Origin: Escherichia coli
GTDB taxonomy: Bacteria > Pseudomonadota > Gammaproteobacteria > Enterobacterales > Enterobacteriaceae
DNA: 50,632 bases
Reading direction: 5' to 3' (one strand)
Assembly (NCBI RefSeq): GCF_003334315.1
Contig: NZ_QOWR01000031.1
A model generated the notes under the pieces. That model had not been told where the DNA came from. It searched no databases and was given only the letters and a program-made list of their open reading frames with translations. The stretch's first letter is position 1, and each line of letters starts with the position of its first letter. Shown one piece after another: positions 1-50,632 of this stretch. The translations under genes were made by a program, and so were the position numbers.

Positions 1-149
1 GGTTGAGAAGCGGTGTAAGTGAACTGCAGTTGCCATGTTTTACGGCAGTGAGAGCAGAGATAGCGCTGATGTCCGGCGGTGCTTTTGCCGTTACGCACCA
101 CCCCGTCAGTAGCTGAACAGGAGGGACAGCTGATAGAAACAGAAGCCAC
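1..149 (-). CDS. insA: IS1 InsA, N-terminal part (5' partial in window, GTG start at 147..149 on minus strand)
   Basis: Minus-strand translation from 149 gives [50 protein letters not shown], the InsA N-terminus with its CxxC...CxxC zinc-finger motif. Confidence 0.85.
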
Positions 150-204
150 TGGAGCACCTCAAAAACACCATCATACACTAAATCAGTAAGTTGGCATCAT
201 CACC
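1..204 (-). mobile_element. IS1 insertion sequence, partial (IRL-proximal 204 bp; rest lies left of the window)
   Basis: Reverse complement of 1..204 reads as the IS1 left end as I recall it: terminal inverted repeat GGTGATG(A/C)TGCCAACTTACTGATTTAGTGTATGATGG at 182..204, followed by the start of insA. One base in the IR differs from the canonical sequence I remember. Confidence 0.9.
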
Positions 205-5312: not shown

Positions 5313-5855
5313 ATGCGAATTAAACCAGACGATAACTGGCGTTGGTATTACGATGAAGAGCACGATCGAATGATGCTCGATTTAGCCAATGGTATGCTAT
5401 TTCGCTCACGTTTTGCGCGCAAGATGTTGACTCCAGATGCCTTTTCTCCCGCAGGCTTTTGCGTTGACGACGCCGCGCTCTATTTCTCTTTTGAAGAAAA
5501 GTGCCGCGATTTTAATTTATCTAAAGAACAAAAAGCCGAACTGGTGCTGAATGCACTGGTAGCAATTCGCTATCTCAAACCGCAAATGCCGAAAAGCTGG
5601 CATTTTGTTTCCCATGGTGAAATGTGGGTGCCCATGCCGGGCGATGCGGCCTGCGTTTGGTTGAGCGATACTCACGAGCAGGTCAATTTGCTGGTCGTTG
5701 AATCTGGCGAAAATGCCGCACTATGCCTGCTGGCACAACCCTGCGTTGTTATTGCGGGTCGCGCGATGCAGTTGGGCGACGCCATTAAAATCATGAACGA
5801 CAGGCTGAAACCGCAGGTTAATGTTGACAGCTTCAGCCTCGAACAGGCAGTCTAA
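5313..5855 (+). CDS. zapC: Cell division protein ZapC
   Basis: Track ORF 5277..5855 trimmed to the ATG at 5313 ([24 protein letters not shown]...), 180 aa. Confidence 0.9.
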
Positions 5856-39977: not shown

Positions 39978-41276
39978 ATGAAAGCGATCTTAATCCCATT
40001 TTTATCTCTTCTGATTCCGTTAACCCCGCAATCTGCATTCGCTCAGAGTGAGCCGGAGCTGAAGCTGGAAAGTGTGGTGATTGTCAGTCGTCATGGTGTG
40101 CGTGCTCCAACCAAGGCCACGCAACTGATGCAGGATGTCACCCCAGACGCATGGCCAACCTGGCCGGTAAAACTGGGTTGGCTGACACCGCGCGGTGGTG
40201 AGCTAATCGCCTATCTCGGACATTACCAACGCCAGCGTCTGGTAGCCGACGGATTGCTGGCGAAAAAGGGCTGCCCGCAGTCTGGTCAGGTCGCGATTAT
40301 TGCTGATGTCGACGAGCGTACCCGTAAAACAGGCGAAGCCTTCGCCGCCGGGCTGGCACCTGACTGTGCAATAACCGTACATACCCAGGCAGATACGTCC
40401 AGTCCCGATCCGTTATTTAATCCTCTAAAAACTGGCGTTTGCCAACTGGATAACGCGAACGTGACTGACGCGATCCTCAGCAGGGCAGGAGGGTCAATTG
40501 CTGACTTTACCGGGCATCGGCAAACGGCGTTTCGCGAACTGGAACGGGTGCTTAATTTTCCGCAATCAAACTTGTGCCTTAAACGTGAGAAACAGGACGA
40601 AAGCTGTTCATTAACGCAGGCATTACCATCGGAACTCAAGGTGAGCGCCGACAATGTCTCATTAACCGGTGCGGTAAGCCTCGCATCAATGCTGACGGAG
40701 ATATTTCTCCTGCAACAAGCACAGGGAATGCCGGAGCCGGGGTGGGGAAGGATCACCGATTCACACCAGTGGAACACCTTGCTAAGTTTGCATAACGCGC
40801 AATTTTATTTGCTACAACGCACGCCAGAGGTTGCCCGCAGCCGCGCCACCCCGTTATTAGATTTGATCAAGACAGCGTTGACGCCCCATCCACCGCAAAA
40901 ACAGGCGTATGGTGTGACATTACCCACTTCAGTGCTGTTTATCGCCGGACACGATACTAATCTGGCAAATCTCGGCGGCGCACTGGAGCTCAACTGGACG
41001 CTTCCCGGTCAGCCGGATAACACGCCGCCAGGTGGTGAACTGGTGTTTGAACGCTGGCGTCGGCTAAGCGATAACAGCCAGTGGATTCAGGTTTCGCTGG
41101 TCTTCCAGACTTTACAGCAGATGCGTGATAAAACGCCGCTGTCATTAAATACGCCGCCCGGAGAGGTGAAACTGACCCTGGCAGGATGTGAAGAGCGAAA
41201 TGCGCAGGGCATGTGTTCGTTGGCAGGTTTTACGCAAATCGTGAATGAAGCACGCATACCGGCGTGCAGTTTGTAA
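39978..41276 (+). CDS. appA: Periplasmic phytase / acid phosphatase (histidine acid phosphatase family)
   Basis: ATG at 39978 (MKAILIPFLSLLIPLTPQSAFA signal peptide); active-site motif RHGVRAP; 432 aa. Confidence 0.95.
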   Translation: MKAILIPFLSLLIPLTPQSAFAQSEPELKLESVVIVSRHGVRAPTKATQLMQDVTPDAWPTWPVKLGWLTPRGGELIAYLGHYQRQRLVADGLLAKKGCPQSGQVAIIADVDERTRKTGEAFAAGLAPDCAITVHTQADTSSPDPLFNPLKTGVCQLDNANVTDAILSRAGGSIADFTGHRQTAFRELERVLNFPQSNLCLKREKQDESCSLTQALPSELKVSADNVSLTGAVSLASMLTEIFLLQQAQGMPEPGWGRITDSHQWNTLLSLHNAQFYLLQRTPEVARSRATPLLDLIKTALTPHPPQKQAYGVTLPTSVLFIAGHDTNLANLGGALELNWTLPGQPDNTPPGGELVFERWRRLSDNSQWIQVSLVFQTLQQMRDKTPLSLNTPPGEVKLTLAGCEERNAQGMCSLAGFTQIVNEARIPACSL

Positions 41277-41287
41277 TGCATAAAAAA

Positions 41288-41312
41288 GAGCATTCAGTTA
41301 CCTGAATGCTCT
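41288..41312. terminator. Hairpin terminator between convergent appA and etk
   Basis: AGAGCATTCAG-TTACC-CTGAATGCTCT hairpin preceded by an A6 run (a U-run when read on the minus strand). Confidence 0.6.
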
Positions 41313-41344
41313 GAGGCTGATGACAAACGAAGAACTGTCTAATG

Positions 41345-41381
41345 CGTAGACCGGAAAAGGCGTTCACGCCGCATCCGGCCA
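41345..41381. repeat. REP element
   Basis: Minus strand reads GGCCGGATGCGGCGTGAACGCCTTTTCCGG, a canonical REP core. Confidence 0.75.
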
Positions 41382-41390
41382 CTTTCAGTT

Positions 41391-43571
41391 TTACTCTTTC
41401 TCGGAGTAACTATAACCGTAATAGTTATAGCCGTAACTGTAAGCGGTGCTGGCGCGTTTAATCACACCATTGAGGATAGCGCCTTTAATATTGACGCCTG
41501 CCTGTTCCAGACGCTGCATTGACAAACTCACCTCTTTGGCGGTGTTCAAGCCAAAACGCGCAACCAGCAGGCTGGTGCCAACAGAACGCCCCACGACCGC
41601 GGCATCACTCACCGCCAGCATCGGCGGCGTATCGACAATCACCAGATCGTAATGGTCGTTCGCCCATTCCAGTAATTGACGCATCCGATCGCGCATCAGC
41701 AGTTCAGACGGGTTAGGTGGCACCTGACCGCGAGTAATCACATCAAAGCCTCCTTTGCCAAAATGCTGGATCACTTTGTTGAGCTCATCTTTACCTGCCA
41801 GATATTCCGACAAGCCATGTTCATTACTCACGGTAAACAGGTTATGCGAATAACCACGGCGTAAGTCGGCATCAATAAATAACACTTTTTGATCGGACTG
41901 GGCGATCACCGCTGCCAGAGTTGAACTGACAAACGTTTTACCACCGTCTGGCGTCGCACCGGTGATCATCAGAATGTTATTCTCCGTCTCCATCATAGCG
42001 AAATGCAGACTGGTTCGTAGCGCACGTACGGCTTCCACAGCAGAATCCGCCGGGTTATCCACCGCCAGGAAGGGGATATTTTTAGTACGATGGCGCTGCT
42101 GATTAGAAAATAAATTTTTCTTACGCAGACGGGTGCGTTTATCCAGCCACTCGGACATTGGGATAGTGGCATAAACGCTGATGCCGTGCTCTTCCAGTTG
42201 TTCCGGTGCTTCTACACCACGACGCAACATCGCACGCGCCAGCACGGCACCCACCGAAATAAACAGGCCAAGAATAAAACCAAGCACCACGTTCAACGCT
42301 TTTTTCGGTTTCACTGGCTGCGGCTGAGTGACTGCCGGGTCGATAATCCGCACGTTACCAATGGCACTGGATTTCGAAATACTCAACTCCTGCTGGCGGT
42401 TAAGTAATTGCAGATATACCGCACGGCCCGCTTCTACGTCACGACTTAAACGCAACACTTCCTGTTGGGTGGAAGGCATAGCCGATACCCGCTTATTCAG
42501 GCGTTTGCGTTCTTGCTCCAGCGTCTGGCGTTTTTCCAGCAGCGCACGATAAGTTGGGTGATCTTTCTTATACAGCTGGGAGATCTCTGCCTCGCGGAAG
42601 GTCAGCTCATTGAGTTGATTATCAACGTTAACAATCTGCTCAAGAACGGCTTTGGCTTCCAGGTTAAGGTCAACCGAATCGCGCTGCTGGCGATAAACGT
42701 TGAGTTTTTCTTCCGCCTGGTCCAGCTCGCTGCGCACTTCAGGCAGCTGGCGCTGTAAGAATTCAAGGCTTTGTGAATCCTGCGCCGCCTGGCGAGCGAT
42801 ATTCTGTTGCAAATAGTTGTTAGCGATGCTGTTCAGAATACGAGTAATCAACTGGGGATCATCACCCGTCATGGTAAGTTCCAGCATCCCGCTTTCTTTA
42901 CTGCGTTCGCTAACGGTAAAGGTTTCCTGCAACGCGTTAATCGCTTCCAGTTCGGTACGCTGGCTCAGGACAAACTGTGTTCCTGGTTTGGCCTTAATAT
43001 CCGCGATAGTCAGCGCAACGCCATCTTTTTCCAGACGCTGGCCGACCATACCATTGACGGTGAACTCTTCACCTTCCAGCGTATAGTGGCCGTTTTCCCC
43101 AACCGTGAGTGTCAGTTGCTGATCCTGACCATTCAGTTGTGGAATATGCATCCAGCTGATCGCCAGCTCACCTGGTTTTTCTTTGGTTAATCTCGCCCAG
43201 CCGCGACCCACAATCGGAAAATACTTCTGCTCAACCATGTCGCGCAGATTCAGTTCAGCAATGGTTTTACCGAGAATCATGCGCGATTGCAGCAGTTGGA
43301 TCTCCGGTGCAGATTCGGGCGATGAGTTAGGGATCATATCGCTCAGGCCGCTGAGAATGGCGTTGCCCTGTTTCTGCTCAACCTGGACCAGAGTATCTGC
43401 CTGATAAATTGGTGTGCTTAACAGCGAGTAAGCGACAGCGATCAGCGTGAATAACGCGGTCACGCTGATAATAAACTTACGGTGATCCCATAACTCGCCG
43501 ACCAGACGAAGCAGATCGATCTCATTTTCCTGAGTGCTGCCTGGTGGCGTATTCATATTTTTAGTTGTCAT
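41391..43571 (-). CDS. etk: BY-kinase (tyrosine autokinase) Etk, Wzc paralogue
   Basis: 726 aa; N-terminal TM/periplasmic/coiled-coil region, cytoplasmic Walker A-like P-loop (GATPDGGKT) and C-terminal tyrosine cluster (YSYGYNYYGYSY). Confidence 0.93.
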   Translation of the reverse strand: MTTKNMNTPPGSTQENEIDLLRLVGELWDHRKFIISVTALFTLIAVAYSLLSTPIYQADTLVQVEQKQGNAILSGLSDMIPNSSPESAPEIQLLQSRMILGKTIAELNLRDMVEQKYFPIVGRGWARLTKEKPGELAISWMHIPQLNGQDQQLTLTVGENGHYTLEGEEFTVNGMVGQRLEKDGVALTIADIKAKPGTQFVLSQRTELEAINALQETFTVSERSKESGMLELTMTGDDPQLITRILNSIANNYLQQNIARQAAQDSQSLEFLQRQLPEVRSELDQAEEKLNVYRQQRDSVDLNLEAKAVLEQIVNVDNQLNELTFREAEISQLYKKDHPTYRALLEKRQTLEQERKRLNKRVSAMPSTQQEVLRLSRDVEAGRAVYLQLLNRQQELSISKSSAIGNVRIIDPAVTQPQPVKPKKALNVVLGFILGLFISVGAVLARAMLRRGVEAPEQLEEHGISVYATIPMSEWLDKRTRLRKKNLFSNQQRHRTKNIPFLAVDNPADSAVEAVRALRTSLHFAMMETENNILMITGATPDGGKTFVSSTLAAVIAQSDQKVLFIDADLRRGYSHNLFTVSNEHGLSEYLAGKDELNKVIQHFGKGGFDVITRGQVPPNPSELLMRDRMRQLLEWANDHYDLVIVDTPPMLAVSDAAVVGRSVGTSLLVARFGLNTAKEVSLSMQRLEQAGVNIKGAILNGVIKRASTAYSYGYNYYGYSYSEKE

Positions 43572-43590
43572 CGTATTTTATAAACTCAAA

Positions 43591-44037
43591 TTACCGGCTG
43601 AGGCGCTTCGCCCATTCCTGACTGGCGCGCTCCAACATACCGTAGACATGTTCAAATGCGTCCTGACTTTTACGATAGGGATCCGGGATCTCTTTCTGTT
43701 CCAGCCATTGCCCAAACAGCATTGTCTTCCCGCGGACCTCGGGAGCGATTGCGGTAACCTGAGCAATATGTTCCGACTCCATTGCCAGAATCAGATCGTA
43801 ATTTCGTGCCATCTCAGCAGTGAGCTTACGTCCGGCATGTCCTTCAAGAGATACGCCATGATTAGCGGCAACATCTGCCGCTGTCGCATCTGCAGGGTGT
43901 TTTACCAGACCATGAACACCTGCCGAATTGACTTTTACGCCCGGCAGACGTTTACGCAGCAAGCGCTCGCCAATGGGCGAACGGCAAATGTTGCCGGTAC
44001 AAACCACCAGGATTGAGTTAAATTTTAGTTGGGCCAT
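43591..44037 (-). CDS. etp: Low-molecular-weight protein-tyrosine phosphatase Etp
   Basis: Track ORF trimmed to the ATG at 44037 ([21 protein letters not shown]...): CX5R LMW-PTP active-site loop; 148 aa. Confidence 0.9.
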
Positions 44038-45164
44038 GTTTGAATCCACCGTGAAGTCTCTGTCAGGTCATGCACCCCGGAAATCGTCGGTACCAGCAGA
44101 GAAATCACACGGTTCCAACGAGCCAGCGGCGCGGTAGTGACATAAACAATGTCGTAAGGTTCAAGCTGGAATTCCGTTCCGAGTATCATTGCCGATGCGT
44201 CCTTCGCATTCAGCTGATAAATATTGGCGATTTTGCCATTCTGCTTGTTTTGCGTTGCACGAATAACAAAAATCCCCGTCGCATCAGCGACATCCTGATT
44301 CATACCCTCAGCGTTACCCAGCGCTTCCGCCAGGGTCATACCGCTGCGGTCCATTTTCAGCGTGCTCTGTTTACCCACTTCACCCATCACGAAGACTTTC
44401 AGATCATCGTTGCGCGGAATAAATAAAATATCGCCCGGGTGCAGCAGTTTGTTCTGGCGCAAGTCGCCACGCTGCATCAGCGCATAGAGGTTCACTTTGG
44501 TCTTTACGCCATTCTGGGTGAGCACCACGTTGCGCCAGTCTGCATCTGCGGTCAGACCGCCCGCGGCGTTAATCGCATCCATGATGGTCAGAGGAATATT
44601 GGTAATCGGCTGCTGACCCGATTTGCTGACTTCGCCGGTGACGTACGCTTTTTGCGAGCGGAACGCCGCGACGCTGACATCGACTTGCGGGCTTTCAATG
44701 ACTGAATCCAGACGCGCTGTAATCTCGTTGCGTACCTGGGTAAGTGTTTTCCCGGCCACTTTCAGGCGACCAATATAGGGGTAGAAAATCGCACCATCGG
44801 CGTTAACCCAGTTGCCGGTATCACTGGCGCTACGGTATTGCCCTGCGGGGGTGGTTAGTTCCGGGTGATCCCAGACCGTAACCATCAACACATCACCAAT
44901 GCCGATACGATATTCATAGTTCGCGATTTGCTGCTCCAGCTCCGGGTTAGCCTGCGACATAATCGGTTTGGCGCGCAGCTGATCAATCAATCCTGGCGTG
45001 ACGGGATAGATATTGACCATTTTGTCCAGGTCATACTGATTGTCAGGTAGTTCAATGACATCCTTGTTACTGGTCGATAAATTCTGACCAGGAACAAGGG
45101 TACATGCTGTCAAAGACAGAACAGCCAATGTCAGTACCGAAAACTTAAAAATGTTCTTTTTCAT
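44025..45164 (-). CDS. gfcE: Wza-like outer-membrane polysaccharide export lipoprotein GfcE
   Basis: Track ORF trimmed to the ATG at 45164 ([23 protein letters not shown]... lipobox LTAC); 379 aa; overlaps the etp start by 13 nt. Confidence 0.9.
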
Positions 45165-45209
45165 TGGTTTATATTTATCAGTCAATGTAATGTTATGAAT
45201 TACGTCAGG

Positions 45210-47306
45210 TTATTGTCCAACCGGTACTTCTCGCTCTGCCGTCATTGGATAGAGCTGGTATTTGCGTGACAGCATTTGTCCACCATCACGCGTCAATGGT
45301 GTCCACGAAACCACCGCGCGGTTGCGGTTAGGTCCAATGGTCATCAAGTCGAACGGAATCGAGATATAAAAACCTTTACTAAAGCCGCCTTCGCCGTAGT
45401 CATCTTTAGATACGTTACTGATTGCCGCCCATACCCCTACCGCCACGCCGCTGTCAAAGCGTTTGGCGACATCGATCGTTGCGCCTTTATCTTTTGCCAG
45501 ATATTGCCCAACGCTAAGTTTCATCAGTATGCCATTGAGCGTCGGCGGGTTCCAGTAAGCCGTCACGAAACCAGTTGGCGTGGAATAATCGGTGAAGCGC
45601 ATCATGTTGTCCCAGTCACGCTGCTTCACGTAGTTAACGTCCACACCCAGCGCCCAGCTGGCATCTAGCGGGCGATAAAGCAGCTCGGAACCGACACCGG
45701 CATACATCGTTTCCAGATAACCGCCATACACCTGGCCATAGAAACCATTGCCTAAGTCGGCAAAGTAGTTCGCCTGCAAGTTGTTGAGATAAACGTCATT
45801 GCGAACGTAATCACGGATATGCGTGCGCACGCGGGGCAGGGTAGAGTCCGCGGGTAATAGCGAAGACTTAAACTTGTCGTAGTTATTGTAAATATTGGTG
45901 AAAATACCGCCATCAAGCAGCAGGTGGTCAGTAAACCAGTAGCGGGCGCTGGACATCAGCCCCAACTGGAACATATAGAAATCTTCCGGGCCGCCCAGCG
46001 ATTGTGAAAGTGTTGGGTTGAAAGAGTAGCTAAAGCGATCTTCACGAATACGGTAGCCCCGACCAAAGGCAGAAAGATCTTCTGCTTCAACACGTTGTTG
46101 TTGCAGTTGCTCTGATTTACCAGGCGCTGTACCAGCCAGCTTTTTGCGCAGGCTGGCTACGTCGGTTTCGGTAGTCACCATCGCCATATGCTCGCGCTTT
46201 TGCGTCACGCTAATCTTCTCAACGCCTTGCGGCAGGTTATTCACCAGAATCCGGTTGGCACGATCGACCGCTTCACGAGAGTCACGGTATTTGTATTGCT
46301 GACCAGACATATACAGTGTCTTATCGCGTAGCTGAATTTCTGGCGCGTCAAAGCCCGCGTTATACTTCAGGGCGGTAAGTTGGTTTGCTACCGTGGTGTA
46401 CTGCAATCCTTCAGATTCAGGCGCAGGTTGATATGCCGGTTTTGGCGTATCGCGCAGGGCAGGGCGCAGATCGTTGAAATTGGTCCGTAACGTGAAGCCA
46501 AACATCAACGTGTTACCGCGTTCATAACTCAGGTTGAGATCTGCCCAGCTGGCAGCGCGATAAACTGCGCCGACGTTGAAATGGCTTGCCTGAGGCAGTT
46601 TGCCAGCGAAATCATTCTGGTAATTGTTTCCATCGTATTCGAGTTTCAGACGCAGGGGATTCCACGGCGTTTGATACTCAATGCCGCCAAAGATGGAGGC
46701 TGGGCCACGAAAGATATCGCTAAAGCTGATATCGCCCGCATCGTGAGACTCTGCGCGATGACAATATTTATCGCTCACCCGGCAAAACGGGTTGGTAATA
46801 TTGCCCGCATTACCGGCGTAGCCCCATGCCATCCCGAGGGTGAAATCAAATGGCCCCGCTTGCTTGCTGGCCACCAGATACTCACTGTCAAACCGACCCG
46901 TACCAGCAATATCACGTTTACCAAACGCCACTTGCGGTAGCCAGTAACCTTCTTCCCACAGGCGAAGTTTAAAATCGAATGATTTGTCTTTGTATGACTG
47001 ATCGCCGCTGAAATCTTCCCACTGGCTATATTTGCGTGTGCGCACATCCGTATAACGAATGGTGCCTTCCAGCCATGGGAACAGCGCCACGGAGGTGGAG
47101 TAGAACCGGTATTGATCGTTATCCCGGTAGTTGACGCTGAATTCACCTTCCGGTGCGATGCGCGCATTTGGCATCTGCAACAATCCTGTGCCGCCAAAGT
47201 CCGATTGCGACGAACCCTGCGGATCCGGGTAGGTTAATACTTCAGCATGACAGGCACTGGAGACGGCAATGGCCAGGCAGCTTAAAAGATATGAATTCTT
47301 CTTCAT
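45210..47306 (-). CDS. gfcD: Outer-membrane beta-barrel protein GfcD (YmcA, YjbH family)
   Basis: 698 aa with signal peptide; sequence and position match gfcD. Confidence 0.9.
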
Positions 47307-48052
47307 CAGTCAGGAACACGTTGCGTTAAAACAGACACAATCTGGTCATTTAAATCAGCATATTTTTCGGGCAGTACATGCGCAGAAAAGCCCAACCAAA
47401 GCTGGCTGCCAGGCGGTGGTTCCACATGTCTTTTATTCCACAGGGCAACAGGGGCGACGACAGTCTCACCCTCAGGCGTAATCACCATAACGTTATTCTT
47501 GTCCGCGCCTGCAAGACGGGGGCGATCTTGCAGATAATCGGTAACGCTACGGCCTGCCTGCCAGGGCAATTGCCCAGCCCCAGAAACCGCACCCAGCAGA
47601 GTAATAGTCACCGGACGCTGTACGGTATAGAGCGTATAGTCCCCGACCAGCGGGGGATTGCTGTTCTCATCCACTCGTACAAAATCAGGGTCCAGTTTGA
47701 CCGGTAAGCGACCAGTGATATTGAGATTGAGTAACTGCTGGCGCACGGATTTAATCGTTGCCACCACATCGTCGTCAGCTTCTGCTTCCCAGGAAGCAAG
47801 CTGTGCCATGACATGTTGGTAGTCTTTAAGCGCTTTAGCTTTCGCCGCAGAGTCGGTCAGCAAGGCACCAGGCCACCAGAGGCGATCGCGCAGTTGCGGT
47901 TGTGTCACCAACTGGACAACATTTTCCACGGGGCCAACGGAAAGTGTCTGTTGTTCGCCAGGCAGATAAATAGTCACCGTTCCTTGCGCAAAGGCATGGT
48001 GTGTCATTACGTAAAGTACGCTGGCAATGAAATACGACTGTAATTTATTCAT
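47306..48052 (-). CDS. gfcC: Periplasmic protein GfcC (YmcB)
   Basis: 248 aa with signal peptide; stop overlaps the gfcD start by 1 nt (TGATG). Confidence 0.88.
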
Positions 48053-48693
48053 GGTGCGGGTTTAAGAAACGTCATTTCTACGGGAATAACCCCTGCGCCT
48101 AACATTTGCCGACTTTGACGAACCTGGCCAGTAGCCGAATCGACCCAGAATGTGTTTTGCCACTGTTTTTCTGGCAGCGTGGAAGTCACCTCTTCCTGCC
48201 AGACATTACACAGCACATTGCGACCCGCAATATTCAGCGTCTCTAATCCAGCAAAGGAAAAAGTAGAACTCAGGGTCGCAGAGCGAAAATGGTTGTCTTC
48301 ACTCCAGAGAATATCGCGCGTCCAGCGGCTGCCATCTTTTATTGCCAGCGCGTTACGCAGAGGGTCCTGCCCGGAATTTGTCACTTCCAGCAGATTATTA
48401 TTAAGTTTGACGGTTTTTAAAAGACGTCCATTGTGGGTAACCAGCATGGCGTTATCCTGGGATAACCATTTGCTTTGTTCTTGTTCTATATATCCCAGTA
48501 CCACAAAGATTCGTTGCCCTTCATTAAGGCGTAAATACATCGTGGAATAAGGCAACGCCTGGATCTGCTGATCCGCTACGGTGATATCCTGATTATCGAA
48601 AAGGCTGGCGCGAAATGTATCGACCATACTTTGCTGGCTGTGCGTACATCCCGCAAGAAATAGTGCGAAAATCGATAAAATAAGAGGGCGCAC
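48049..48693 (-). CDS. gfcB: Lipoprotein GfcB (YmcC)
   Basis: 214 aa with lipobox LAGC (MRPLILSIFALFLAGCTHS). Confidence 0.88.
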   Translation of the reverse strand: MRPLILSIFALFLAGCTHSQQSMVDTFRASLFDNQDITVADQQIQALPYSTMYLRLNEGQRIFVVLGYIEQEQSKWLSQDNAMLVTHNGRLLKTVKLNNNLLEVTNSGQDPLRNALAIKDGSRWTRDILWSEDNHFRSATLSSTFSFAGLETLNIAGRNVLCNVWQEEVTSTLPEKQWQNTFWVDSATGQVRQSRQMLGAGVIPVEMTFLKPAP

Positions 48694-48799
48694 CTTTAAT
48701 CCTTGAAAGGTTAATTAAAAAAATGCAAATCTCTAAAGCCCGGTACGAATATCGCAACCGGGTATCATTTAACTTTAATTTCGACGCGTTAAAGCAGTA

Positions 48800-49105
48800 T
48801 TAGTGTGTAGTGGACGTGGTGGTTGAGGTGTTATGAGAACCGCCATCGCCACTGTCATTTGCTGCAACAACTGCCAACGTCGCCACACCAACAGCCGTTG
48901 CCACACCGACAACTGTCGCCGTGCCGACAGCGCCAGCAGCCACGCCACCAGTGGTAGTAGCAGTCGTGGTTGCGCCGGTAGTGGTCGTTGTGGTGCCAGT
49001 AGTACCCGTCGTTGCCTCGGTCCCGTTTGTTGCTTCAGGGGCAGCAAACGCAGCTGGCGTCGTCAACATGAAGGCCATAAGGATTGCAGAAAGCTTGTGT
49101 TTCAT
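48800..49105 (-). CDS. gfcA: Threonine-rich small secreted protein GfcA (YmcD)
   Basis: ATG at 49105 (MKHKLSAILMAFMLTTPAAFA signal peptide) followed by a T/G/A-rich low-complexity region; 101 aa. Confidence 0.85.
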   Translation of the reverse strand: MKHKLSAILMAFMLTTPAAFAAPEATNGTEATTGTTGTTTTTTGATTTATTTGGVAAGAVGTATVVGVATAVGVATLAVVAANDSGDGGSHNTSTTTSTTH

Positions 49106-49546
49106 AACTTTTCCTTTATTCATCGCATGGACAATACGTACGCTTGAGATCAAGATTGTCTACTTTGAGTATAACATCCTTGTGAAATCTCCCTTTCCTC
49201 ATACCGCTTGCACTATATACTGCGGGTAGGAAAGGCGCGCAGAGGGAAATATAAGATTGTTAACTATCCCCCTCTGGAAATACGACTTGTGAGCATAAGA
49301 TAAATCTTAGCAAAATACAAATTAAAGATAAGGAAATTGTTACGAAAGCTATTAATTATTGTTGGTAATATAGTTTCAAGTGGTACTATAACTGGCTGTT
49401 AAATGGCATTTATAACTATTAGGTGCAGAGATATTCGCTTAAATGGATTAGTTTCTTTGTGGAAAAGTAACTGATGTTATAATGTATGATGTTGACTATT
49501 GCACTATTCCAATAAAACCAGTCAGCTTTAAACAAGCAGCGTCATA
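49106..49546 (-). promoter_or_regulatory. AT-rich gfc operon upstream/promoter region, uninterrupted by IS
   Basis: 441 bp AT-rich intergenic region between the gfcA start and cspH stop with no IS1 sequence (no IS1 inverted repeats or insA/insB reading frames). The promoter itself is not mapped. Confidence 0.5.
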
Positions 49547-49759
49547 TTAAGAGAGATAAACATTTGCCGCTGTTGGTCCTCGCAGGCCATTTACGCGGCA
49601 AAATTCCACACGTAATCCTGGTATAAGCACTTCTGCGTCGCGGGGAGTGAATGCGGAAATATGGACCTGAACTTCTTTACGACCGTCAGAGGGGATAATG
49701 AATCCTTTGCCGCTTTTGCGATCAAAGGTTTTGACAATTCCTGTCATTTTACGGGACAA
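49547..49759 (-). CDS. cspH: Cold-shock-domain protein CspH
   Basis: 70-aa [40 protein letters not shown]... with cold-shock domain. Confidence 0.92.
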
Positions 49760-50044
49760 ACAAATTCCTTACTGAAAATACTGCGCTGCACTATACGGGG
49801 TTAATAAAATAAAGCCAGCGATATTTAAGACCGCCGGACGGCTAAAATAAAATTTGCTTAATCTCAATTATCATGCGTTAATAGCTGCGTCGGTTTGAAA
49901 GACAGACAGCATACAAAGTAGTTTACTAAAGCAGTTCTCATTATCAGGCATTATCCCCTTCTTTTGAGTCTCTCTCCTGAACACTAAGTAGTTTCTGTAT
50001 TAAAGCCCTGTTTGCCGAAAGGCCCAAAATGAAGGAAGTAAAAT

Positions 50045-50179
50045 ATGTCTAATAAAATGACTGGTTTAGTAAAATGGTTTAACGCAGATAAAGGTTTTGG
50101 CTTTATCACTCCTGATGATGGCAGCAAAGACGTTTTCGTCCATTTCACTGCCATCCAGAGCAATGAATTCCGCACGCTG
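50045..50179 (+). pseudogene. cspG: Cold-shock protein CspG, N-terminal 45 codons only; truncated by IS1 at 50179/50180
   Basis: Translation [45 protein letters not shown] matches the CspG N-terminus (RNP1 KGFGFI, RNP2 VFVHF). The reading frame then runs into the IS1 inverted repeat (track ORF 50045..50260); the expected C-terminal ~25 aa are missing. Confidence 0.88.
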
Positions 50180-50632
50180 GGTAATGACTCCAACTTATTG
50201 ATAGTGTTTTATGTTCAGATAATGCCCGATGACTTTGTCATGCAGCTCCACCGATTTTGAGAACGACAGCGACTTCCGTCCCAGCCGTGCCAGGTGCTGC
50301 CTCAGATTCAGGTTATGCCGCTCAATTCGCTGCGTATATCGCTTGCTGATTACGTGCAGCTTTCCCTTCAGGCGGGATTCATACAGCGGCCAGCCATCCG
50401 TCATCCATATCACCACGTCAAAGGGTGACAGCAGGCTCATAAGACGCCCCAGCGTCGCCATAGTGCGTTCACCGAATACGTGCGCAACAACCGTCTTCCG
50501 GAGACTGTCATACGCGTAAAACAGCCAGCGCTGGCGCGATTTAGCCCCGACATAGCCCCACTGTTCGTCCATTTCCGCGCAGACGATGACGTCACTGCCC
50601 GGCTGTATGCGCGAGGTTACCGACTGCGGCCT
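50180..50632 (-). mobile_element. IS1 insertion sequence, partial (IRR-proximal 453 bp; rest lies right of the window)
   Basis: 50180 onward reads GGTAATGACTCCAACTTATTGATAGTG..., the reverse complement of the IS1 right end as I recall it, continuing as antisense insB to the window edge. Confidence 0.93.
50195..50632 (-). CDS. insB: IS1 transposase InsB region (C-terminal part; 5' end beyond window)
   Basis: Minus-strand translation ...[68 protein letters not shown]...[15 protein letters not shown] with stop at 50195..50197. Confidence 0.92.

Follow-up and report, generated by a model that had tools for sequence, protein, structure and literature searches.

The closest described systems are the gfc operons (also g4c, or ymcDCBA-yccZ-etp-etk) of EPEC O127:H6 E2348/69, EHEC O157:H7 and Shigella sonnei, which are flanked by appA and cspH and have an uninterrupted leader. 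Each gene of the operon is needed for the capsule in EPEC (PMC4368438, PMC8592465). In K-12, though not in pathogenic strains, the promoter region of ymc/gfc contains an IS1 (PMC2516531).

The stretch of DNA analysed here (the window; 50,632 nucleotides of an Escherichia coli contig) carries a seven-gene block, etk, etp, gfcE, gfcD, gfcC, gfcB and gfcA, at 41391..49105 on the minus strand. It shares with the three described operons the seven genes, their order, orientation and overlaps, as well as the appA and cspH flanks and the uninterrupted leader. We are confident that 41391-49546 represents a wild-type gfc operon for the export of group 4 (O-antigen) capsule, that it belongs to a phylogroup-A-like E. 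coli, and that it occupies the normal gfc location, between appA and cspH, with an intact native leader. The features of the locus are as follows.

41391..43571, minus strand: etk, 726 aa, BY-family tyrosine autokinase and polysaccharide co-polymerase
43591..44037, minus strand: etp, 148 aa, low-molecular-weight phosphotyrosine phosphatase
44025..45164, minus strand: gfcE, 379 aa, Wza-like outer-membrane polysaccharide export lipoprotein (OPX)
45210..47306, minus strand: gfcD, 698 aa, YjbH-family outer-membrane beta-barrel protein, labelled gfcD in all reference records
47306..48052, minus strand: gfcC, 248 aa, full-length periplasmic protein
48049..48693, minus strand: gfcB, 214 aa, GTG start, lipoprotein with lipobox L-A-G-C16
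48800..49105, minus strand: gfcA, 101 aa, threonine-rich small protein, first gene of the operon
49106..49546, minus strand: gfcA-cspH spacer, 441 bp, uninterrupted, operon leader and promoter region
49130..49138, no strand assigned: empty target of the K-12 IS1 (GACAATACG), one copy with no insertion, 25-33 nt 5' of the gfcA ATG
49168..49178, minus strand: predicted extended -10 TGtTATACT (within gaTGtTATACT), read from the sequence by eye
49547..49759, minus strand: cspH, upstream neighbour on the same strand as gfc, labelled cspH in all reference loci

All seven reading frames match their K-12 MG1655 counterparts in length and are colinear with them, with zero gaps or indels and zero internal stops. 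Comparison with the annotated K-12, O157-like and EPEC loci gave the order gfcA-B-C-D-E-etp-etk, with all genes co-oriented and with cspH and appA on either side. Overlaps of 13 nt (etp/gfcE), 1 nt (gfcD/gfcC) and 4 nt (gfcC/gfcB, ATGA) connect neighbouring genes, and an AAAGGA ribosome-binding motif occurs 9-14 nt 5' of the gfcA ATG. The seven full-length genes with coupled overlaps that the first-pass annotation had described are therefore present, and no frameshift or nonsense codon was found in any gfc gene.

The residues expected of the products were also found. Etk scores 1594 bits on the NCBIfam equivalog NF007350 (cutoff 1248) and contains the BY-kinase residues, namely the Walker A K545, Y574, R614 and the C-terminal Tyr cluster; its kinase domain differs from that of crystallised Etk (3CIO) solely by S543G. 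Etp scores 332 bits on the equivalog NF008486 (cutoff 247), and its translation contains the C13-X5-R19 loop, D119 and Y121, including the IPDPY motif; C13, R19 and D119 are important for catalysis and Y121 for regulation (PMC3366997). GfcE scores 703 bits on NF011658 (cutoff 333) and carries the lipobox L-T-A-C21.

The 441-bp spacer is AT-rich (GC 0.34 over 49200-49499) and continuous, as had been proposed from the first reading. Three IS-free spacers, those of KTa005, EPEC E2348/69 and an O157-like strain, align with it gap-free, and that of K-12 does so once the IS1 and one copy of the duplication are removed. In K-12 MG1655, a 767-768-bp IS1 lies in the gfcA-cspH spacer with the 9-bp duplication GACAATACG flanking both sides, in agreement with the literature (PMC2516531) and with the statement in the first-pass annotation. 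The window contains the target once, at 49130-49138, and does not have the K-12-type IS1-interrupted leader. It is thus the exact empty site of the K-12 gfc IS1.

This IS-free leader is the common wild-type state and is not special to the window strain. A probe centred on the K-12 IS1 site was contiguous in 3137 of the 3695 complete E. coli genomes carrying the region (85%), and the whole 8156 bp of 41391-49546 is 100% identical in strain CP53. Within the closest 60 alleles, those at least ~99.96% identical are uninterrupted in 50 further genomes besides CP53, and for 53 of the 60 the operon is unbroken and every gene is annotated.

Insertions of IS1 into gfcA or its leader were observed at no fewer than five independent sites in other strains. 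Eight sampled genomes gave five distinct IS1 sites, three of which fall in a 22-bp stretch that lies after the predicted promoter and before the gfcA start codon.

Transcription most likely begins at a promoter in the conserved 200 bp 5' of gfcA. These proximal 200 bp are nearly invariant, with only 1-6 positions differing from the window, and the predicted extended -10 is identical in K-12, the O157-like strain and EPEC. A two-hexamer sigma-70 consensus scan of 48700-50100 gave no match on the gfc strand, so the placement of a candidate promoter at 49168-49178 rests on the extended -10 motif and its conservation. This position would fit the strong SELEX peak (167.2) of K-12 RNA polymerase with sigma38 between insB and cspH (PMC5493296). 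Part of that signal may stem from the IS1 itself, since another K-12 IS1 end (argF-insB) also has a peak, although a weaker one (25.0; PMC5493296). In S. sonnei, a complementing clone described as having its own promoter begins at a primer matching window positions 49397-49376 (PMC4368438). If the promoter is correctly placed, the K-12 IS1 would lie between the extended -10 and the gfcA ribosome-binding site and would separate the operon from its promoter.

Read-through into gfc from cspH is also possible, as the terminator scan of 48700-50100 found none between cspH and gfcA. RNA folding gave nothing convincing (z-scores of 0.03 after the cspH stop, -1.13 in the gfcA-gfcB spacer and 0.80 in the predicted 5' UTR), and the Rfam scan of 40500-50632 detected no RNA element in the gfc leader; its sole match was the cspA-type thermoregulator of cspG. 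Control by RfaH/ops was considered and dropped, as the ops-like string in the leader (aGCGGTAt) is only partial and gfc is absent from the RfaH paper. The literature yielded nothing direct on a mapped gfcA transcription start or a regulator.

According to the established picture from EPEC, EHEC and S. sonnei, GfcE would form a Wza-type outer-membrane channel, whereas Etk would serve as inner-membrane co-polymerase and tyrosine autokinase with Etp as its phosphatase, the two cycling the phosphorylation states. GfcA-D would be accessory envelope proteins, and together the seven products would build a capsule layer from O-antigen repeats polymerised by Wzy. The capsule polymer itself is the product of the Wzy-dependent O-antigen cluster, and this cluster is not part of the 50.6-kb window. 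The analysis shows directly that the genes are intact, that the site is empty and how frequent the IS-free state is among the genomes; the position of the promoter, expression of the window operon and formation of a capsule from it are inferred for this strain.

Of the competing explanations, the one that survives best accepts an intact and functional operon but regards it as silent in most conditions (the AT-rich leader might, for instance, be repressed), so that the absence of IS1 would cause little change of phenotype relative to K-12. The low GC content of the leader is in keeping with this, as is the behaviour of EHEC, which is IS-free and yet transcribes gfcA at a level ~30-fold lower than EPEC, with no capsule visible under the same conditions (PMC3853201). 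The mechanisms of ymc expression have moreover been called unknown (PMC2516531). On the other hand, expression of the operon in EPEC and S. sonnei is driven by this same conserved leader. We therefore regard a mostly silent operon as a real possibility, though one we lean against. Given the low gfcA mRNA in EHEC and the location of the O-antigen cluster outside the window, the description of the locus as uninterrupted and potentially expressible holds for the first term, and for the second only as a necessary condition for the capsule. The first-pass annotation had further stated that IS1 silences the operon in K-12. The insertion in the promoter region is confirmed, but silencing is too strong a term because under some conditions etk is argued to remain expressed in K-12 (PMC2516531).

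Other explanations concern the allele itself. The operon has 99.3% nucleotide identity to K-12, while the 42 kb upstream diverge by only 0.06%; divergence rises ~15-fold within 41945-48804, which indicates a recombination patch. Sixteen amino acid changes were found among the 62 nucleotide differences from K-12 (overall dN/dS ~0.1). GfcE is 100% identical to the K-12, O157-like and EPEC proteins, whereas Etk differs from K-12 at two residues (I112M and S543G), GfcC at three, and GfcA at one (R101H). The changes found only in the window, relative to EPEC, the O157-like strain and K-12, are S543G in Etk, K37N in Etp (the single difference of this protein from each of the three), R101H in GfcA, L30Q, L138R, G141S, Q389K and V593I in GfcD, and P18H, A97V and H177R in GfcC, where P18H lies in the signal peptide. 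The Etk change is located in the Walker A loop (P-loop), two residues N-terminal to the catalytic K545; as an allele it is in the minority, occurring in 170 of 3480 genomes.

On the branch leading to the window allele, 11 of the private changes are nonsynonymous and 8 synonymous in the comparison with K-12, the O157-like strain and EPEC.

A tentative view, which we hold to be rather doubtful, is that gfcA and its leader are a recurrent and independent IS1 target in K-12-like commensals and that, together with nonsense mutations in sister strains and a ~10-fold raised dN/dS, this would point to group 4 capsule export being repeatedly switched off or relaxed, with the window as one copy, as yet intact, of an allele in decay. 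Another view, which we consider unlikely, holds that the reading frames are intact but that constraint in the lineage of the window allele is relaxed or function already impaired, in which case the word 'complete' would overstate function; the impairing changes would be S543G in the P-loop of Etk, P18H in the signal peptide of GfcC and four to five changes in GfcD. It draws on the dN/dS of ~0.42 on this branch compared to 0.02-0.06 on the other three (Fisher p = 3e-5), on the proximity of the minority S543G to K545, and on close relatives with the same allele that have a nonsense codon in gfcC (L002) or gfcD (L003, L010) or insertions of IS1 or ISKpn15. The counts are however small, at 19 changes and three comparison strains only, and the overall dN/dS against K-12 is ~0.1. 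In addition, the position equivalent to S543 varies among active BY-kinases, being Ala in Wzc of K30, and the 53 uninterrupted alleles with all genes among the closest 60 also speak against this view.

It is highly improbable that the IS-free appearance is an assembly artefact in which a real insertion in the spacer was skipped: both window ends do lie inside IS1, as is typical of a short-read contig broken at repeats, but an IS1 in the spacer would break such a contig rather than be skipped, and base for base the spacer agrees with that of complete long-read genomes such as CP53, the target occurring once.

The features at the two window ends are listed below.

1..204, minus strand: left-hand portion of an IS1 (IS1 positions 1-204), adjoining elfC, 98.5% identical to K-12 IS1 by BLAST
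50045..50179, plus strand: 5' fragment of cspG, first 135 nt, cut by IS1, with the K-12 cspG alignment ending at 50179
50180..50632, minus strand: right-hand portion of an IS1 (approximately IS1 positions 316-768), continuing beyond the window end, 96.7% identical to K-12 IS1 by BLAST

Both fragments have the same orientation, and only one junction is visible for each as the window ends inside each copy. The cspG-side fragment is 99.3% identical to IS1A/B copies by BLAST, and the Rfam match of the cspA thermoregulator spans 49889-50209. On the other side, the K-12 elfC alignment begins at window position 199. As elfC and cspG are both intact in K-12, the window strain differs from K-12 in its IS1 content at three sites, just as had been noted at first sight: the gfc spacer lacks the element, while elfC (1-204) and cspG (50180-50632) carry it. 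The exact cspG::IS1 junction had no single-piece match in 5426 complete genomes. For the elfC::IS1 junction, the sole single-piece matches in the same genomes were TST3 and TBE6; at 96.4% identity and with 10 bp more, these were read as different insertions.

Taken as a wild-type operon with its native leader, the locus matters little in itself. An intact gfc leader is already known, and the state of the window is to be expected because the K-12 IS1 is a published exception. The primary paper on this K-12 insertion is Peleg et al. 2005. The strain keeps the wild-type operon for capsule export; in K-12 the operon is cut off from its promoter, and K-12 is the atypical reference at the gfc locus. 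As annotation, the finding is useful in that an O-antigen capsule is possible if a working O-antigen cluster is also present. The recurrent IS1 hits in gfcA and the excess of amino acid changes in this lineage may be of interest for capsule loss in commensal E. coli.

Among the known systems, the experimentally studied EPEC E2348/69 operon encodes proteins ~97-100% identical to those of the window, which differ at 4 of 726 residues in Etk, 1 of 148 in Etp, 7 of 698 in GfcD, 7 of 248 in GfcC, 1 of 214 in GfcB, 5 of 101 in GfcA and none in GfcE. K-12 MG1655 (gfcA-IS1-cspH) has the same genes with the same lengths, but also the IS1 and the GACAATACG duplication, both absent from the window. More distantly related is wza-wzb-wzc, which exports group 1 capsule and colanic acid and in which Wzc, Wzb and Wza are paralogues of Etk, Etp and GfcE; yjbEFGH contains paralogues grouped with wza-wzb-wzc as a related system. 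Etk scores 1002 bits on the Wzc model and has matches to two solved structures of Wzc, 7NHR and 3LA6, and Etp scores 198 bits on the Wzb model, but both proteins exceed the cutoff only on their own equivalog models. Unlike wza-wzb-wzc, the window locus has gfcABCD upstream and is found at appA-cspH, not in the cps/wca cluster.

A total of seven genes of the group 4 (O-antigen) capsule operon were found in the window, as located from the ORF list and by aligning the window base by base to the annotated MG1655 locus of K-12:

41391-43571, minus strand, etk
43591-44037, minus strand, etp
44025-45164, minus strand, gfcE
45210-47306, minus strand, gfcD
47306-48052, minus strand, gfcC
48049-48693, minus strand, gfcB, with a GTG start
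48800-49105, minus strand, gfcA

All seven genes retain their K-12 lengths, with zero gaps and zero internal stops in the base-level alignment, in agreement with the first-pass annotation, which had described them as full length with coupled overlaps; the overlaps are 13 nt at etp/gfcE, 1 nt at gfcD/gfcC and 4 nt at gfcC/gfcB. The AT-rich region upstream of gfcA, reported there as continuous, is unbroken over 49106-49546 and has a core GC content of 0.34. The 106-nt spacer between gfcA and gfcB (48694-48799) contains a CCCGGU...ACCGGG hairpin with a U-run some distance after it and a folding z-score of only -1.1, and this hairpin may act as a weak attenuator ahead of the downstream genes.

The first-pass annotation placed an IS1 between gfcA and cspH in K-12, and the annotated MG1655 locus does carry it; an IS1 in the promoter region of the K-12 operon, absent from pathogenic strains, is also described in the literature (PMC2516531). 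The BLAST alignment between the window and K-12 splits at window position 49138/49130, where K-12 has an insert of 767-768 bp flanked on both sides by the 9 bp GACAATACG, which places the insertion point 25-33 nt upstream of the gfcA ATG. Once the IS1 and one copy of the duplication are removed, the K-12 gfcA-cspH spacer aligns to 49106-49546 free of gaps and with two mismatches, and therefore the window is the exact empty site of this IS1. The further statement that the IS1 silences the K-12 operon is too absolute, because etk has been argued to be still expressed in K-12 under some conditions (PMC2516531).

The gfc operon was found in 3747 of 5426 complete E. coli genomes, and in most of the genomes lacking it cspH adjoins appA. 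To assess the IS-free state, 501 bp with the K-12 insertion point at their midpoint served as a probe, and a match of at least 80% in one piece was taken as contiguous; 3695 genomes have the probe region, and it is contiguous in 3137 of them. An exact break at the K-12 position was observed in six rows of an evenly spaced 60-row sample of the probe search, four being recognisable laboratory derivatives of K-12 (DHB4, J53-p131, JCL301 and Trp01) and the other two a mouse-associated isolate (IGC_EcoliInv_1.1) and a chicken-meat isolate (SY3626C1). Uninterrupted alleles account for 53 among the best 60 of the matching genomes, and in strain CP53 from pig faeces all 8156 bp of the operon and spacer are 100% identical in one piece. 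The contiguous majority and the closest alleles thus show the IS-free spacer to be the ordinary wild-type state.

A two-hexamer promoter scan gave no match on the gfc strand. A predicted extended -10 element (TGtTATACT) was read from the sequence at 49168-49178 on the minus strand. It falls in a stretch of 200 bp with hardly any differences between the window, K-12, an O157-like strain and enteropathogenic EPEC O127:H6 E2348/69. Genomic SELEX in K-12 placed an RNAP-sigma38 peak of very high intensity (167.2) between insB of the gfcA-cspH IS1 and cspH; the convergent orientation of the genes on either side was the sole reason for classing it as non-promoter, and it was assigned to no gene (PMC5493296). 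Relative to the cspH/cspG peak, it lies at the cspH-side end of the IS1; only one other IS1 end has a SELEX peak, a weaker one (25.0). The 167.2 peak corresponds to approximately 49130-49250 of the window, which in IS-free strains is directly upstream of gfcA, beside the extended -10. Peak and element together probably represent the orphaned native gfc promoter, and we infer that in K-12 the IS1 separates this predicted promoter from the ribosome-binding site, within the 5' UTR. The first primer of a Shigella sonnei complementing clone described as carrying "its own promoter" matches 49397-49376 (PMC4368438), therefore about 290 bp upstream of gfcA should be enough in S. sonnei.

The operon had been called potentially expressible, which stands as far as the IS-free site is concerned. 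In EHEC, the operon is intact and IS-free, yet gfcA transcription is about 30-fold lower than in EPEC and no capsule is seen in the same medium (PMC3853201), and the O-antigen cluster of the window's strain lies outside the 50,632-nt window. An IS1-free leader is therefore a requirement for gfc expression but not enough by itself.

IS1 sites around gfcA were compared between window 48810-49266 and the gfc loci of other E. coli genomes (L001, L002, L003 and L008-L011). In window positions they are:

49121-49130, IS1 site in strain 2017.17.01CC
49117-49125, IS1 site in strain YZ22MPE6
49259-49266, IS1 site in strain EH10-18-47
48810-48819, IS1 site at the 3' end of gfcA in strains cM2a, 13C1065T and L6-21
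49130-49138, IS1 site in K-12

These five distinct sites represent independent insertions, three of them spanning just 22 bp immediately upstream of the gfcA start codon. In several of the IS1-bearing strains, gfcC or gfcD also carries a nonsense codon. Such a pattern could arise from a preferred IS1 target or from selection that silences the operon.

IS1 copies in the same orientation were found at both window ends (1-204 and 50180-50632), matching the insertions in elfC and cspG noted in the first-pass annotation; elfC (2601 nt) is cut near nt 1625 and cspG after nt 135. The latter truncation inactivates the cold-shock gene cspG in the window's strain, as judged from its sequence, and the IS1 directly follows an Rfam cspA thermoregulator match (49889-50209, 116.6 bits) covering the cspG leader and 5' coding region. 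A search of 5426 complete genomes gave no unbroken match to the cspG::IS1 junction, and the elfC junction was matched without a break only in TST3 and TBE6, at 96.4% identity and with 10 bp more, so these two were read as a different insertion. The window is probably a contig breaking at IS1 repeats, and the one junction it shows per terminal copy fits simple insertion and rearrangement alike. At 5774 in zapC, the window has one extra base compared with K-12 record CP025268.1, where zapC is annotated as frameshifted, so it is the K-12 record, rather than the window, that has the lesion.

Divergence from K-12 is about 0.06% over the 42 kb upstream (199-41900; 26 mismatches) and about 0.9% within 41945-48804, where approximately half of the differing sites also vary when the window is compared with the O157-like strain. 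The segment looks like a recombination patch spanning the operon. Compared with K-12, the O157-like strain and EPEC, 19 changes are private to the window allele, 11 of them nonsynonymous and 8 synonymous, which gives a dN/dS of about 0.42 on its branch against 0.02-0.06 on the other three (Fisher p = 3e-5). They include P18H in the GfcC signal peptide, four to five changes in GfcD, and, in the Walker A loop of Etk (GATPDGGKT), S543G (codon 41943-41945), two residues ahead of the catalytic K545. Among 3480 complete genomes with etk, 170 match a 54-bp probe spanning codon 543 at 100% identity and the rest have at least one mismatch, which suggests that G543 is a minority allele. At the equivalent position Wzc K30 carries alanine, so the substitution may well be tolerated.

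Overall, the initial observation is confirmed and its interpretation supported with the above qualifications; this is a known operon in a common state, and the finding is an ordinary one. A systematic survey might be worthwhile only for the recurrent IS1 insertions around gfcA and for the excess of amino-acid changes on the window allele's branch.

Etk and Etp pass the curated NCBIfam cutoffs of their own equivalogs and GfcE that of the polysaccharide export subfamily. Etk carries K545, Y574, R614 and the C-terminal tyrosine cluster, and its kinase domain differs by one residue from crystallised Etk (3CIO). The Etp translation carries the C13-X5-R19 loop, D119 and Y121, residues whose roles are given in PMC3366997. 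All seven genes are needed for the O-antigen capsule in EPEC E2348/69 (PMC4368438, PMC8592465). By homology to that system, GfcE would form the outer-membrane channel, Etk and Etp an inner-membrane kinase/phosphatase pair cycling phosphorylation, and GfcA-D would be accessory envelope proteins, with the polymer supplied by the Wzy-dependent O-antigen pathway, encoded elsewhere. Compared with EPEC E2348/69, GfcE of the window is identical whereas the other six proteins each differ by 1 to 7 residues.
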